A DNA stretch of 32,000 bases from Candidatus Saccharimonadota bacterium (GTDB lineage: Bacteria; Patescibacteriota; Gracilibacteria; BD1-5; UBA6164). The translations under genes were made by a program, and so were the position numbers. The notes beneath the pieces are model-generated. The model did not search any database and was not told the DNA's origin. It saw nothing but the letters and a program-made list of their open reading frames with translations. The stretch covers positions 450,001-482,000 of the forward strand of contig OZ245922.1 of assembly GCA_965229705.1 (NCBI GenBank). The letters run 5' to 3'. Below, in pieces: positions 24,178 to 29,770 of this stretch. Position 1 is the stretch's first letter. Each line of letters starts with the position of its first letter.

Positions 24178-25479
24178 GGTATAGTTCTGAAAAAGTGTGT
24201 AAAAATAGATATGAGGTATGTATGTAAATTATTGTAATAAAAATTTACAGAACAGGAATTCTTTTTTCTCAAAAGAAAGCTACGAGTTCCATTCTTAATG
24301 AATGAAAATCACGTACTTTTTTGAGAGATTTTTGTTTATTCTGTACTGCAAGAAATATAGATATTTCAGCAGATCTCTGAGTAAAGTATACTCTTCTTTT
24401 TCAAATATTAGATTTAATAAGTCCATTAAAATTCTCAATCACATTCGTAGAATATATAAGCTTTCTGAGAGGATAAGAATATTTAAAATACCCTCCCCAT
24501 ACATCAATATTATAAAACCATTCCTGAAGCAAGATACTATATTTTTCCCATTTCTGCTTCATAGCCTCTAAAAACTTGAGAGCCTCCTCTTGAGAAACAG
24601 CGTTATACACTTTCTTAAACTCCATAAAAAATTCTGTTTTATCTTTGTATGAAATGGACTGGAGAAGGTTTCTGACTCTGTGCACGATACAGGGCTGAAC
24701 TTGAGTGTTCGGAAAACAAGATTGTATTGCTTCTTGAAATCCGGCCAGTCCATCAACACAAGCTATGAGAATATCATCTACGCCTCGATTTTTTATACTA
24801 TTTATAATTTCTTGCCATACAGCTGATGATTCTGGTTTTTGCATCACCACAAAGTCTAAAATATCTTTTTCTCCGTATATATTTACTCAGATGATGAAAT
24901 ATACTGGCACACTTTTAATACAGCTTCTGCCACTATGACTCTCAACCTTCATCTTTATATAGGTAGCATCCAGATATACTATTGTGTAAAAATTAAGTAA
25001 GGTTCTTGACTTGAAACCCAGAAGTTCATCATATACGCTGATATTTTTGAGAGCAAATCATTAGAAAATCCAAAACCATATACTTCTGTAAAATACTGTC
25101 TTATATCTTCAAAAGTATTTCATAATCGCATCAGACCAAGTATCTGACTCCAAATGGTATCGAATATTTGTTCGAGTGTTTTTGCTTTTATTTCAGAAAA
25201 AAACACTGTGCCTTCTTCTTTTTTTCAACGGGTACGAGGTATTTCTAAATCCATACGACCAAAGTAGGTTTTAGGGCGTATCTTACGAGTTCCGTTCTTA
25301 TACACATCTACTCGTGATACAAAATCCTCAAATTCTTCGTATATAGCACTCTCTATTGTGCTTTTTAATCTTTGCAATATAGTTTCCATATCCTAAGGGA
25401 TTAAAAAAATAAGGTACATATTTGCATACATACCTTATTTTTTTATCTCTTATTTTACACACTTTTTTGAAACAGTGCC
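24178..25479 (-). mobile_element. IS256-family insertion sequence (1302 bp)
   Basis: The ends are GGTATAGTTCTGAAAAAGTGTGTAAAAATAG and the reverse complement of GGCACTGTTTCAAAAAAGTGTGTAAAATAAG, identical at 22 of 31 positions. It is flanked by the direct repeat ACTCTGAG (24170-24177 and 25480-25487). It encodes a Mutator/IS256-type transposase. Confidence 0.88.
24245..25389 (-). CDS. IS256-family transposase in two overlapping frames (frameshift near 25044-25048)
   Basis: ORF A is 25389..24979 (METILQRLKST...VYGFGFSNDLLSKISAY...). ORF B is 25060..24245 (...VYDELLGFKSRTLLNFYTIVYLDATYIK...IACVDGLAGFQEAIQSCFPNTQVQPCIVHRVRN...). B is in the -1 frame relative to A. The two parts together align with the single ORF of IS256-type transposases as I recall it. 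Confidence 0.8.
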
Positions 25480-26007
25480 ACTCTGAGTGGAGATGAGCAA
25501 TCAAAGAAAGCTGTCTATGATATTATAGCAAAGTTTGAATCAGAGCTTGTGCCTGAATGACTCCAGCAACTTCATAATATTTGTGCGCCAAAACAAGCAT
25601 GATGAGCAGAGAAACCCATGACAATATTTTATCAAAGCTTTTCACTCACAGATGTGAGAGGAGCCATAGAAGTCTTCATGGATGATGAGAAGTTTGAAAA
25701 AGCCAAAGCCACTGAATGACTCTGAGCATTAAGTATTGTGAAGATTATGAAAGCACTTATGCATTTTCCTAAGTATGCTCAATATAATTTTTGTGATGAT
25801 GGCAAAGAACTCTCAGAACTTTTTCCAGGACTTCGCATAGAACTTCCTGATCGCGAAAGCATTCAACAAAAATGAATCAACTCATTCCCACACTGCTTAA
25901 GATTAACTTCTCAAACTCACAAAGATGCGACAGATATTTTTCGAGCTCTATTTACGAGATGAGTTATTATTCCACAAAAAAACTCAGACAATATGGAAGA
26001 GTAATAT

Positions 26008-27108
26008 TTAAACTAATTTAATATCATTTGAGAATGAAATAAAATCTAACTTTGGAGAAACTCATATATTTATATTTTTAACTTTTAATCATTCATTTAC
26101 AATACTAAAATTAAATGAATCATAATTTGGAGTAAATTTTTCAGAAATATTAATAATATTATCGCATATTTTTAACAATGGTTCTGTATCAATATTATAT
26201 ACCCTATATATTATGAATTTTTTACAATCTTTTATAAATCTAAGTTCATTTCAACTAAAAAACATATCTTGTTCAAATTTATATCATGTAGTTTTAACAT
26301 CAGAAAAAATTGACTCTCAATCTTTATCTATTATTTCAAAGTCATAAGGAAGATATGATTCTCCTAAACTATTAAACCATTCAAAACTAGTAATTAATCA
26401 GTTATTTTTTAATTCTTTTAAATAAGTATTAATCAACTCCTCCCCTTTTCTTCAAACTTCTATAAATCTTTTTTTAGCTTTTTCTATATCATATTTTCTA
26501 GTGTTAACTCTATTAATTAACTTAGGTGATAATTCTCATAGTTGAACAATACTTTCTAATTCTTCTAAATACTCAATATTTACCTTATTTATTTTACTAT
26601 TTAGATATTCAATAATGCCTTCAAAATTACTATCTTTTATTCATAAAGACAATTTATCTAGACTATCTCATCATGTAATAAATGATGTTAAGTAATTATA
26701 GTCTTTATCATTTTGTTTAAATAAGAAAAAAATTATATCATTGTTATCTAATCAAAACCACATTAAATACCATTTATTATTAATATCACCATCTACAATT
26801 TCTCTAATCTCTTTTACAACTGAATTCACATTTATTCAAGATAATTCAGATCTATTTCAAGAACGTATTTTAGGACTTCTATATGAGCCATCTGATTTTT
26901 TAATTAAATCTAAAAAAGTAGCTAATTCCTTAACACTATCCTCATAAATGAATTGAGCAAAAGACTGATGATGAGTATTATCTATAAAATCTAATGTATC
27001 TTCGAATAATCATATATGTGTTTGATGACTAGTCTCTCATATTCATAAATCAGCTTCTGAAAGTAATTTACAACCTATTTTTGCACTATCATGTAGTTTA
27101 AAAAACAT
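26008..27108 (-). CDS. candidate restriction endonuclease: EcoRII-N/B3-like N-domain + DUF3883-like PD-(D/E)xK C-domain (366 aa)
   Basis: ATG at 27108 lies 4 nt after the M2 stop; TAA at 26010-26008. The frame was checked line by line. The N-terminus has GCKLLSEADLGIGETSHQTHIGLF (compare EcoRII IKRLSANDTGATGGHQVGLYIP). The C-terminus has GRKGEELINTYL...LPYDFEIIDKDGESIFSDVKTTGYKF...FFSGNELRFIKDCKKFIIYRVYN, which fits the D...(D/E)xK and DUF3883 pattern. Confidence 0.65.
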
Positions 27109-27112
27109 AATT

Positions 27113-28201
27113 CTATTTTATATAATTAAAGTCTATCAAATATCTTAAAACCGAATATACAGTATTAATACTTACTGCATTTCATGCTTGTTTATATAGT
27201 TGGTGATCACTAATTCATACATTTGATGCATTAGTATAAAAATCATATCAAAATCATTGTAATTTTAAAGCTTCCCAAGGAGTTATTTTTCTAATTTTAT
27301 GCTTAATTTCATCATCTTTATCAAATTTATTTTCTAGATATGTATATTTACACTTACTATCTAAAAACTCTTGTGAATAATAATTATCTTGACATGCTCT
27401 ATGCATTTTTACCATTGAGGCAGTCAAAGGTCTTGCTATTAACTGATTTATTTCAGATTTTGACTTAAAAGACTTTGTTCAATTAGATAAAATAGTTGGC
27501 TTTATTTTTTCTGATAAGAAATACTTATCATCATCTAGTTGTAAATCTAATAATCAATCTAACACATCATTGTATATATTAATACTAGAACTATTACTAA
27601 ATCATTTAAAACTTTCTTGAACTAAATTTTCATCAAATTTAGTTCAAGAATCTAAATTTCTCTTAACTGCATAAATATATAATCTTCTCCTTGTTTGAGG
27701 TAATCAATAATCAGAGGTGTTAAATATATCTTCATATACATTATATCAAGAAATTTCTAAAGTAGTTTTTATAATATTATATGTTTCTCAATTATTATGT
27801 GTAAATAGATTTCTAACATTTTCTAATAAAATATATTTTGGCATTTTAACCTCAACTATTTTCATAACGGAAAAAAACAACCCTCATCTATCGTCATTTA
27901 ATCATAATTGCTTTCACATCATGCTAAAAGGTTGACAAGGAAATCATCAAAATAGTATATCAAAATCTTCAATTTTATTAATATTATTATTTTCAACAAA
28001 ATTTACAATATCTCAAATTTCATGTTCTTTATCTGTACAATAATTAGATTTATAAGAATTTGTTGCAAATTTATCAATTTCTGAGAATCACACACATTTT
28101 GTTTCAAATCATAAGTCATTTCCTAATAACTCTAAAGACTTTCTAAATCCTCCAATTCAAGAAAATAAATCTAAAAATTTTATTTGTTTTATCTTTTTCA
28201 T
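27113..28201 (-). CDS. DNA (cytosine-5)-methyltransferase M2 (362 aa)
   Basis: Motifs in order: I DLFSGIGGF, IV GGFPCQPFS, VI LLENV, VIII LPQTRRRLYIYA, IX ITPWEALKLQGF, X AGNAVS. ATG at 28201 and TAG at 27115-27113. The frame was checked line by line. There are many TGA codons, so nothing appears in the track. Confidence 0.9.
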
Positions 28202-28211
28202 AAGTATTTAA

Positions 28212-29609
28212 TTATTTTAAATGCTTAATAATATGTTTTCATATTAATTCTGCTAATTTAACTGGTACAGCATTTCAAATCTGCGCATACCAAGTATTAT
28301 TAGCTCACATAAAAATATAATCATCCGGAAAAGTCTGCAACCTAGCTGATTCTCTCGGACTTAATCATCTCGATTGAGTAGGATGAATATACATATTACA
28401 ATCCATTTTCATATGAGAAGTTATAGTTTTAGAAACCTCTAATTCATGTAATTTATAATATTTATCCTTAAAAATATGATTTCTCTTATTATATGGCATA
28501 ATATCACTTATAGAATCATGTAAAGAATTAGCTCACTGAGGTAATCTAGAAAAAATTTCTATATCTCTTTCATTATTATATCTATTAGTATGATTGAATA
28601 AATAATTAACTGATCTATTGTTTAAATACGATTCATATTTTGTTATAGAATATTTATAGTCTTTTATTTTAAATCAGATAATATCATTTTCTAATTCTGA
28701 ATTATTTTTATGCATTTTAACTCATAAAACTGGTAATCAATCCAATGCATCTTTTAACTTAAAATTTAAACTATTTTCTTTTTCATTAACTATATCTTTA
28801 GTTATATCTTTTGCACTTACATTATCTAATCTACTTCATATTACAAATACTCTTTCTCTATTTTGTGGTATACCAAAGTCTTTTGCATTTAATAACATAA
28901 TTGATATTGAATAATTATTTCATAAATTATTTAAAAAGTCATTTTTAACTTCATCAGATTTATTCATCATTCATTTTACATTTTCCATTACAAAAAACTT
29001 AGGATGAATTAGTTTTAATAATTTTAAATAATATCTATATAACTCATTTCTAGGATCATCTATTACTCTTTGTCTATTTGCCATTGAAAATCATTGACAA
29101 GGAGGTCATCAAACTATTAAGTCTATATTTTCAAAATTAGTCTTATATAATTCAAATTCATCAACTAATTTCCTTATATCATCACAATAATAATTATCTA
29201 ATTTAATATCTCTATTAAAATAATATGATTCAAGAAATTTAGGTTCAATTTCATTAATAAAAACTGGATTAAATCAAACATTCTCCATTCATAAACTTAA
29301 ACCTCAACATCAAGCAAAAGTATCAACAAATTTAAATCTTTTATTTTTATTATCTTGATTCTTACTTATAAATTTCAACAAAGTATCTGATAAGTTTTCC
29401 TTATTTTTAATCAGTGTATAATATAATTGATTTACTCTTTCCCAATCTTTACTTAAAAGTCATTCATTGTAATCTTCAGATAAACAATATGAATAATTCT
29501 CAACTATATTTATTCATTCAATTAACAATAATTTTTCTAAATCTTTTGTTAATCTACCAACCTTTGATTTATAATTATTTTTTAAATATTTTTTATAAAA
29601 CTCAATCAT
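28212..29609 (-). CDS. DNA (cytosine-5)-methyltransferase M1 (465 aa, about 95-aa N-terminal extension)
   Basis: Motifs in order: I DTFAGCGGLSLG, IV GGPPCQGFS, VI VMENV, VIII IPQNRERVFVIG, IX RESARLQTFPDDY, X IGNAVPV. ATG at 29609 and TAA at 28214-28212. The frame was checked line by line. Confidence 0.92.
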
Positions 29610-29770
29610 TTTCTACTTTAATTATATGTCTTTTTAATTATAAATATAAAAAAATACCAAGCATACAAGATGTATTTTAAATACAGCTAATATATACATT
29701 ATATATACATATTTAAAAATCAAGTTTATATTAATAATATATGATCTCTTGACTCTATCGTGTGGTGGAG

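Follow-up and report, generated by a model that had tools for sequence, protein, structure and literature searches.

A candidate compact restriction endonuclease that joins a predicted B3-like DNA reader to a NOV_C nuclease domain in a bacterium reading TGA as glycine

Restriction enzymes that contact DNA through a B3-like reader include EcoRII, UbaLAI, BfiI, NgoAVII and LlaJI.R1 (PMC5766183, PMC7680126), and the joining of a B3 domain to a PD-(D/E)xK nuclease is already known from EcoRII and UbaLAI (PMC5766183). The DUF3883 domain, now NOV_C, is likewise known as the catalytic domain of the restriction enzymes McaZI and YenY4I (PMC6765204), and an archaeal survey lists a DUF3883 group as presumed Type IIR (PMC10609329). 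The gene considered here, R, lies on the minus strand at positions 26008-27108 of a 32,000-nucleotide (nt) window, the whole stretch of contig OZ245922.1 (positions 450,001 to 482,000) that was analysed from a Candidatus Saccharimonadota bacterium. It encodes a 366-amino-acid (aa) candidate restriction endonuclease in which a predicted B3-like reader is followed by a NOV_C domain. A preliminary description of this DNA had called the pairing unusual; the combination of B3-like reader and NOV_C, and the family that carries it, are new, whereas the ingredients are less unusual than was implied. The accompanying statement that no characterised restriction enzyme with exactly this pairing was known to its author agrees with the literature and with the more than 230 homologs found, a comparison in which REBASE was not covered. 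The literature consulted yielded no account of NOV_C fused to a B3-like reader, none of this family serving as the R component alongside two methyltransferases, and none of engine exchange around a constant unit of reader and methyltransferases.

R is the last gene of a minus-strand operon, M1-(10 nt)-M2-(4 nt)-R, in which both upstream genes encode C5 cytosine DNA methyltransferases: M1 (28212-29609, 465 aa, PF00145 at 1e-73) carries an N-terminal extension of about 90 aa, and M2 (27113-28201, 362 aa) matches PF00145 at 5e-74 and TIGR00675 at 5e-75. Two 5-methylcytosine (m5C) methyltransferases followed by a restriction module on one strand are also the plan of LlaJI, which restricts unmethylated GACGC/GCGTC and has R1 as its specificity subunit (PMC1459862). 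LlaJI R1 consists of a B3 reader and a McrB-like GTPase and binds DNA through the B3 domain (PMC7680126), and R2 is a McrC-like PD-(D/E)xK protein. The likeness extends to the N-domain of Helicobacter pylori LlaJI.R1, the best structural match of the R reader, and to two proteins (P0252 and P0259) in which the same reader is fused to a McrB-like AAA+ domain beside orthologous methyltransferases. In contrast to LlaJI, the window R is a single 366-aa chain of reader and NOV_C with no GTPase motor and no R2; no AAA or RE_LlaJI (PF09563) signal is present in it, and the operon holds only M1, M2 and R. Taken together, R is very probably the restriction endonuclease of a classical restriction-modification (R-M) system. 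The fuller assignment, in which R is the endonuclease of a compact three-gene Type II operon that is Type IIS-like, with a B3-like reader and a NOV_C cutter, is considered probable, and the Type IIS mode by itself is given an even chance or slightly better.

The R gene is a single intact open reading frame (ORF) of 366 codons once TGA is taken as a sense codon, and it terminates at TAA (26008-26010). Table 11 was rejected for this region, as it breaks the gene into ORFs of less than 70 aa. Over the whole window, the sequence contained in ORFs of more than 100 aa rises from 1.7 kaa (thousand aa) with the standard bacterial code to 16.5 kaa with TGA as sense, and the chance of 366 codons free of TAA and TAG at a guanine-cytosine (GC) content of 22% is estimated from base composition at about 1e-12. 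TGA encodes glycine (code 25) in R, M1 and M2, since it falls on conserved glycines of the methyltransferases and of the R homologs: in M1 and M2 it sits at the invariant glycine of the C5-methyltransferase motifs FxGxGG, GGxPCQxFS and QxGNAV, and in R the TGA codons 22, 33 and 219 fall on positions where 90% or more of the homologs have glycine. These conserved positions rule out table 4, in which TGA encodes tryptophan. The deposited protein (P0001 in NCBI/ENA) is the R sequence with Trp at all 17 of its TGA codons and was therefore translated with the wrong code, table 4 instead of table 25. A 47% identical homolog (P0020) likewise has Trp in place of conserved glycine. The peptides on which the preliminary description had relied, GCKLLSEADLGIGETSHQTHIGLF (residues 12-35) and WYLMWFGLDNNDIIFFLF (residues 113-130) as well as GRKGEEL, YDFEI, DVKTT, SGNELRF and YRVYN, all occur in the table-25 translation of R.

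The assignment of R to an R-M system is carried in the first place by its linkage to the two methyltransferases across a large family. Full-length homologs of about 360 aa and 38-54% identity number more than 230, and their names are limited to "DUF3883/NO VEIN domain-containing" or "hypothetical"; in the library clustered at 50% identity, 116 representatives are recovered at E<=1e-30. A locus search with a 16-sequence alignment yielded 80 loci from reference genomes, 69 of them informative by having at least 2.4 kb of upstream DNA, and 109 family sequences served for the conservation and Pfam checks. The 80 loci span more than 10 phyla (among their hosts Uhrbacteria, Saccharibacteria, Campylobacterota, Clostridia, Treponema, Gastranaerophilales, Alphaproteobacteria, Acholeplasmatales, Elusimicrobia and a methanogen), and many lie in Bacteroidota (Segatella copri, Leyella, Alistipes, Flavobacterium). 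M1 and then M2 stand directly upstream of R on the same strand in 65 of the 69 informative loci, at 48-71% identity to the window's M1 and M2, and M2 followed by M1 stands directly downstream in three more (Treponema-type), which brings methyltransferase linkage to 68/69. These near-obligate M1-M2-R operons contain no other nuclease gene, and their two methyltransferases co-diverge. In the sole locus without a methyltransferase (L020, 7001-8044), R is truncated at its 5' end, where the start codon and the first 15 codons are missing. Decay in the absence of the methyltransferases is expected of a nuclease that is lethal without them and argues against a modification-dependent enzyme of the McaZI type.

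That alternative, a Type IV/IIM enzyme like McaZI, BwiMMI and YenY4I, would have the reader sense 5-methylcytosine or 5-hydroxymethylcytosine (5mC/5hmC) and the adjoining methyltransferases belong to something else. McaZI, BwiMMI, EfaL9I and YenY4I do share with R the DUF3883/NOV_C C-terminal family, a similar size (about 330-370 aa) and an N-terminal reader, and for DUF3427-DUF3883 enzymes a location close to methyltransferases in defence islands is common (PMC6765204). Among the relatives whose likeness to R is confined to the NOV_C half, some are solitary, too. The reader of McaZI and the three enzymes named with it, however, is the SauUSI-like DUF3427 domain that senses 5mC/5hmC, while R is operonic with methyltransferases of its own. 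No match to DUF3427 (PF11907) and no PUA or SRA signal is found in the 109 family members, SauUSI is absent among the fold matches listed, and the fold matches B3 sequence readers. The near-obligate operon with the same two co-diverging methyltransferases, the truncation of the copy that lacks them, and the pairing of the same methylation module with a LlaJI-type module, LlaJI being an enzyme that restricts unmethylated DNA (PMC1459862), all point the same way, and modification dependence is very unlikely. The modification-sensing function that had been offered as an option is therefore unsupported, given that R almost always shares an operon with two m5C methyltransferases.

Several loci depart from the common arrangement. 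R is frameshifted in two of them (L084, 7001-8058; L080, 1157-1910). In L032, R is cut off at residue 317 and M1 is partial. The reversed order R-M2-M1 is found in Treponema/Spirochaetales members (L041, L043, L044, L047, L050), whose methyltransferases are the most divergent of the set (41-47% identity).

The C-terminal part of R (residues 205-366, 26011-26496) comprises the NOV_C/DUF3883 PD-(D/E)xK domain together with a C-terminal helix and strand. PF13020 (NOV_C, formerly DUF3883) matches residues 226-312 with 46.4 bits, against a gathering cutoff of 22.1, and E 4.1e-12, and it is matched by 109/109 aligned family members. Five residues are invariant across these 109 sequences: D256 (26341-26343), D270 (26299-26301) and K272 (26293-26295), which make up the predicted catalytic core (26293-26343, codons read directly), and the further acidic residues E223 (26440-26442) and E288 (26245-26247). 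Read from the alignment, E223...D256...D270-x-K272...E288 is the standard PD-(D/E)xK signature. DUF3883 was placed in the PD-(D/E)xK superfamily in 2012 (PMC3424549), and NOV_C has been demonstrated experimentally to be a nuclease/nickase module (PMC11232893, PMC6765204). The D...ExK...E residues are essential for catalysis in the NOV_C nickase HmaA (PMC11232893), and their spacing matches that of D256...D270-x-K272...E288 in R; HmaA differs from R in its size of about 1150 aa, in being a defence protein driven by a Snf2 helicase, and in lacking both a sequence reader and methyltransferases. Metal-dependent nuclease activity of R is predicted by analogy with the other NOV_C proteins in which it has been demonstrated (PMC11232893, PMC6765204). 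In both structural models described below, the order of secondary-structure elements in this domain fits the alpha-beta-beta-beta-alpha-beta core. The identification of this half as a DUF3883-type PD-(D/E)xK domain, first made by eye, is thus upheld by a significant Pfam match and an invariant catalytic signature.

Operons of m5C methyltransferases often carry a small PD-(D/E)xK-like Vsr gene, and R might on that account be something other than a restriction enzyme: a site-specific nickase, a Vsr-like repair nuclease acting on the T:G mismatches that deamination of 5mC leaves at the methylated site, or a DNA-binding regulator accompanying an orphan methyltransferase pair. In the literature considered, the one NOV_C domain with measured activity is indeed a nickase (PMC11232893). 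Family profile scans, however, give no similarity of R to Vsr, and sister operons hold restriction modules at the same position, whether LlaJI R1/R2 or HNH or McrB-like fusions. The loss or breakage of R while the methyltransferases are kept is typical of toxic nucleases, and the full catalytic tetrad is invariant. A role outside restriction is given only a slim probability.

For the N-terminal half, AlphaFold2 (AF2) models were considered of a 54% identical homolog with the correct glycines (P0002) and of the window's own deposited product (P0001, Trp at TGA), with predicted local distance difference test (pLDDT) scores of 91.8 and 91.5 and predicted template modelling (pTM) scores of 0.84 and 0.85, respectively. 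Both models place eight strands and two helices in residues 1-155, and eight strands plus two helices define the DNA-binding pseudobarrel superfamily, whose members are listed in the UbaLAI paper (PMC5766183). Beyond the barrel, both have two linker helices, a low-confidence hinge at residues 190-204 or thereabouts, and the alpha/beta domain that bears the catalytic residues; linker and hinge together take up residues 161-204 (26497-26628), and the hinge is poorly conserved (block pLDDT 58, conservation 0.40). Searched with Foldseek against the PDB, both models find the LlaJI.R1 N-domain from Helicobacter pylori first (6c5d; E 9e-4, template modelling score on the target (TMt) 0.57-0.59). The next matches are BfiI and BfiI-C, the UbaLAI B3 domain and the plant proteins LEC2, ARF1, At1g16640 and TEM1, with LEC2 (6j9c) at TMt 0.56-0.65 across the two models and a root-mean-square deviation of 3.4 A; PDB entries heading the lists include 1yel, 3zi5, 2c1l, 5o63, 4ld* and 7et6. 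The fold comparison is joined by a short sequence motif. The EcoRII segment quoted in the preliminary description, KRLSANDTGATGGHQVGLYIP, corresponds exactly to EcoRII residues 23-43, and the family consensus K-K-L-S-x-A-D-L-G...S-H-Q-T-H-I-G-L shares with it the pattern K.LS..D.G...HQ..GL. The modelled fold and this motif, with no profile match beside them, support residues 1-160 (26629-27108) as a B3-like pseudobarrel and putative sequence reader. The B3/EcoRII-N-like call previously made on this half is in keeping with the B3-led Foldseek lists of both models, and the same searches place neither half of the protein in an unrelated non-nuclease fold.

A number of results weigh against these domain assignments and particularly against that of the reader. 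Residues 1-220 of R have no match in Pfam, NCBIfam, PADLOC or PDB sequences, and no B3, EcoRII-N, DUF3427 or other reader profile of Pfam appears at E<=5 in the 109 family members. Searches of the PDB with the reader by phmmer and by profile hmmsearch are empty, and hhalign of the R reader against LlaJI.R1-type N-domains gives a probability of 0.5%, BLASTP being negative as well. The Foldseek support for B3 is itself modest, with a best E of about 1e-3 and TM 0.57-0.65 on a small target, and for the C-terminal domain the Foldseek match to Hjc is weak (probability 0.5-0.7, TMt 0.44) and occurs in 1/2 models.

The conservation within the reader is concentrated in beta1, the loop into beta2, and the tip of the beta4-beta5 hairpin with beta5 (RSPKIR). 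The first of these regions contributes a putative N-arm (residues 14-35, 27004-27069), a strand-loop-strand element K-x-L-S-x-A-D-L-G...S-H-Q-T-H-I-G-L-F in which K14, T30, I32 and L34 are invariant in the 109-sequence alignment and beta2 reaches a conservation of 0.94. The second forms a putative C-arm (residues 58-82, 26863-26937), a beta-hairpin ending NPDGS-RSPKIR with an invariant P79 and at least 90% conservation of R77, S78, K80 and I81; the hairpin tip has a conservation of 0.73 and beta5 of 0.87. By analogy with UbaLAI-N and EcoRII-N, these blocks would occupy the positions of the DNA-reading N-arm and C-arm (PMC5766183), and the two putative arms of R may read bases in the major groove in a similar way.

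The same reader also heads proteins with other catalytic parts, where it is recovered as the N-terminal domain at 110-200 bits in an exhaustive profile search. It is joined to HNH in P0240 and P0247, to McrB-like AAA+ in P0252 and P0259, and in the 557-aa protein P0207 (L092, 2963-4636) to a C-terminal region of about 380 aa without a family match. P0247, P0252 and P0207 each lie directly downstream of an M1-M2 pair 48-56% identical to that of the window, their readers are 35-43% identical to the R reader, and the HNH and 557-aa fusions retain the arm motifs, including NPDGS-RSPKIR. The converse also occurs: in proteins of about 350 aa, only the half made up of linker and NOV_C is shared with R, and of these one lies in the same HTH-M-M-R operon (HTH, helix-turn-helix) and two are solitary. 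The conserved unit is thus the pair of methyltransferases plus the reader, and the nuclease is interchangeable. As the engine is swapped while reader and methyltransferases stay constant, the reader would set the specificity and NOV_C would act as a generic cutter, which is the strongest argument for the proposed division of labour. Recognition and cleavage also appear separable from the two-domain model with its hinge and from the occurrence of the reader with other engines and of NOV_C with other N-domains.

This exchange bears directly on whether R works as a Type IIE enzyme like EcoRII and UbaLAI, with the B3-like domain as an allosteric effector bound to a second site and the C-terminal domain both recognising and cutting. 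R has the same domain order, B3 N-terminal and PD-(D/E)xK C-terminal, from the same two superfamilies (PMC5766183), UbaLAI-N is among its fold matches, the K.LS..D.G...HQ..GL motif is common to R and EcoRII-N, and a pTM of 0.84-0.85 suggests a compact and possibly autoinhibited arrangement. The catalytic domains of EcoRII and UbaLAI, however, are of the PspGI or MvaI/MutH type and are themselves sequence-specific, whereas NOV_C is the only domain detected in the C-terminal half of R. Their site, CCWGG, is (pseudo)palindromic and needs one methyltransferase, while the two methyltransferases of the window system imply an asymmetric site. Type IIE is less likely because the catalytic domain of R is small, belongs to a family other than those of EcoRII-C and UbaLAI-C, and can be swapped for HNH or AAA+ while reader and methyltransferases stay, so that specificity travels with the reader. 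It is regarded as improbable; among the functions suggested earlier, "Type IIS-like" is favoured over "Type IIE".

A further link to LlaJI-type systems is provided by a plasmid of Treponema saccharophilum, pTS1, which carries the closest plasmid-borne relatives of M1 and M2 (56% and 49% identity, respectively). After the pTS1 methyltransferases come an AAA ATPase and a nuclease with a PF09563 RE_LlaJI match at 2e-42, a restriction module of the LlaJI type. Neighbour-joining trees place both methyltransferases at deep positions within the clade that is linked to the B3-NOV_C nuclease. M1 has only five relatives in the plasmid collection, which does not contain pNP40, and the Treponema LlaJI.R1 N-domain has only five close relatives. 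A candidate homology of the R reader to the pTS1 R1 N-domain was tried and found by neither BLASTP nor hhalign, which is set against the favoured reading. Opinion leans slightly towards a modular set in which M1-M2 and the B3-like reader have been plugged into at least four engines (NOV_C, HNH, McrB-like AAA+ with a partner, and the 557-aa form). On that view, the NOV_C branch would represent a compact family of Type IIS enzymes, uncharacterised and possibly of new specificity, maintained here in a TGA=Gly-recoded bacterium, and domain exchange would link simple Type IIS-like enzymes with LlaJI-type motor nucleases.

Two further observations concern proteins that carry the reader or its neighbours. 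The 900-aa AAA+ fusion in L088 (5512-11168) is flanked by ORFs of 158 aa and 818 aa without a family match; these ORFs and the C-terminal region of the 557-aa protein are candidates for undescribed nuclease partners or engines. In the 970-aa protein P0206, ankyrin repeats and a complete sigma-70 factor (regions 2-4) come after the reader (residues 4-193), an arrangement that may be an ORF-fusion artefact of stop-codon read-through in gene calling or a real fusion of reader and transcription factor.

Under the favoured Type IIS-like reading, the B3-like domain would bind as a monomer and read a short asymmetric site through its two conserved arms (ADLG...SHQTHIGL and NPDGS-RSPKIR). M1 and M2 would each methylate a cytosine on one strand of the site, which would keep host DNA from being bound or cut, and on unmethylated incoming DNA the tethered NOV_C domain would cleave with Mg2+ through E223, D256, D270 and K272. 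The cut would fall beside the site, and a double-strand break could arise by transient dimerisation, as in FokI, or by sequential nicks, as in BfiI. NOV_C is most likely a non-specific cleavage module because it is small and is replaced by other nucleases in the sister systems, and a non-specific module would make R Type IIS-like in the manner of FokI or BfiI. BfiI (Type IIS, ACTGGG) offers a precedent, since its asymmetric site is read solely by a B3-like domain that is tethered to a non-specific nuclease (PMC5766183, PMC3973309), and BfiI and BfiI-C rank high in both Foldseek lists of the R models. It differs in having the reversed order, with a C-terminal B3-like reader, and a metal-independent nuclease of the phospholipase-D type. 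Cleavage of unmethylated DNA and its blocking by cognate methylation are suggested by the linkage to M1 and M2 and by the exchange with LlaJI-type modules (PMC1459862). It tells against this scheme that the family is known here from genes and predicted structures alone and that cutting outside the site would follow from the architecture alone.

With two distinct m5C methyltransferases in each system and a B3-type reader that would act as a monomer, the recognition site is implied to be asymmetric; GACGC/GCGTC is a weak candidate for it, a lead and not a result. In 697 kb of host DNA flanking 80 systems, GACGC/GCGTC has an observed/expected ratio of 0.80 (z -5.4) and shares with GAGTC the top rank for depletion among about 55 known asymmetric sites. 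Under-representation is seen in 53/68 loci (p 4e-6), and no other of 45 composition-matched 5-mers lies as low. Systems of the HgaI/MhoVI family (Type IIS, GACGC) likewise have a three-gene layout, in which two m5C methyltransferases accompany a single-chain nuclease that acts on an asymmetric site (PMC12376442). By published sizes, however, their nuclease has 485-520 aa (R.MhoVI 520) against 366 aa for R, and their methyltransferases of about 360 aa lack the M1 extension (PMC12376442). Several results speak against GACGC. The depletion was computed on host DNA only, without a non-host control, and within the window the site is not depleted, with 20 occurrences observed and 20.1 expected. Upstream of M1, neither an enrichment of GACGC nor any recurring motif is found. 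No named HgaI relative occurs among the R homologs, and the methyltransferases are not close to the HgaI/MhoVI type. A transfer of the site from the lactococcal LlaJI prototype was rejected; the LlaJI-type link is drawn from the pTS1 pair. A match in Lactococcus petauri considered as a LlaJI relative proved to be an HpaII system.

If the assignment is correct, a nuclease family present in more than 10 phyla, including gut Bacteroidota such as Segatella copri, and labelled only "DUF3883 domain-containing" would be the R component of a compact R-M system. Such genes and their paired methyltransferases could then be annotated as R-M systems, which bears on the genetic tractability of gut anaerobes and of Candidate Phyla Radiation (CPR) bacteria. 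A 366-aa reader-plus-nuclease for an asymmetric site would also make a candidate Type IIS tool, and the way in which a B3 fold reads DNA could be studied cleanly with it. The NOV_C, HNH and McrB-type series would allow the exchange of cleavage machinery to be studied with specificity kept, and would bear on the relation of LlaJI-type hybrids to simple Type II enzymes. The presence of 57 in-frame TGA=Gly codons across M1, M2 and R would further indicate that such systems are passed between code-25 lineages and retained in them.

The M1-M2-R operon lies in a low-GC island (26000-29750) with a GC content of 21-25% against 34-38% in the flanks and a GC content at third codon positions (GC3) of 10-12% against about 30% in flanking genes. 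TGA makes up 81% of glycine codons in the island and 43% in the flanking genes. These differences in GC, GC3 and TGA use indicate that the island evolved in, or came from, another code-25 lineage, the probable donor being one of lower GC content that shares this code. In a standard-code host, its 57 in-frame TGA codons would prevent the island from functioning. A recently acquired island beside an insertion sequence (IS) element might be a remnant that is silent or in decay and has lost expression or activity, and this would fit the low GC content, the adjacent IS256-like element with its split transposase, the lack of a promoter signal above chance and the lack of local GACGC avoidance. The three ORFs are, however, intact with all invariant residues present, intact methyltransferases with an intact R make up a functional configuration, and the 57 TGA=Gly codons mark full adaptation to code 25. 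A remnant is considered extremely improbable.

Some 540 bp past the 3' end of R comes the IS256-like element (24190-25467), which has imperfect terminal inverted repeats at 24190-24229 and 25420-25467. Its Mutator-family transposase is split into two minus-strand ORFs in different frames (24979-25389 and 24245-24952), either as a frameshifted pseudogene or through a programmed frameshift. Between this element and R, a plus-strand ORF of 128 aa in code 25 (25618-26004), convergent with R, gave no match in a Pfam scan. A scan for promoters and terminators gave no signal above chance. Two sites score as terminator-like, where shuffled sequence leads one to expect 0.4; one of them, on the minus strand at 27614-27650, is a 16-bp perfect-looking hairpin with a T-rich tail and falls within the coding sequence of M2. 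The window operon is without an HTH gene, and about 160 bp of AT-rich intergenic DNA separate M1 from an ATP-binding cassette (ABC) ATPase gene upstream. In some other members, at L002 (3185-3496), L094 (5-280), L015, L019 and L026, a small HTH_3 gene resembling those of controller proteins lies directly upstream of M1.

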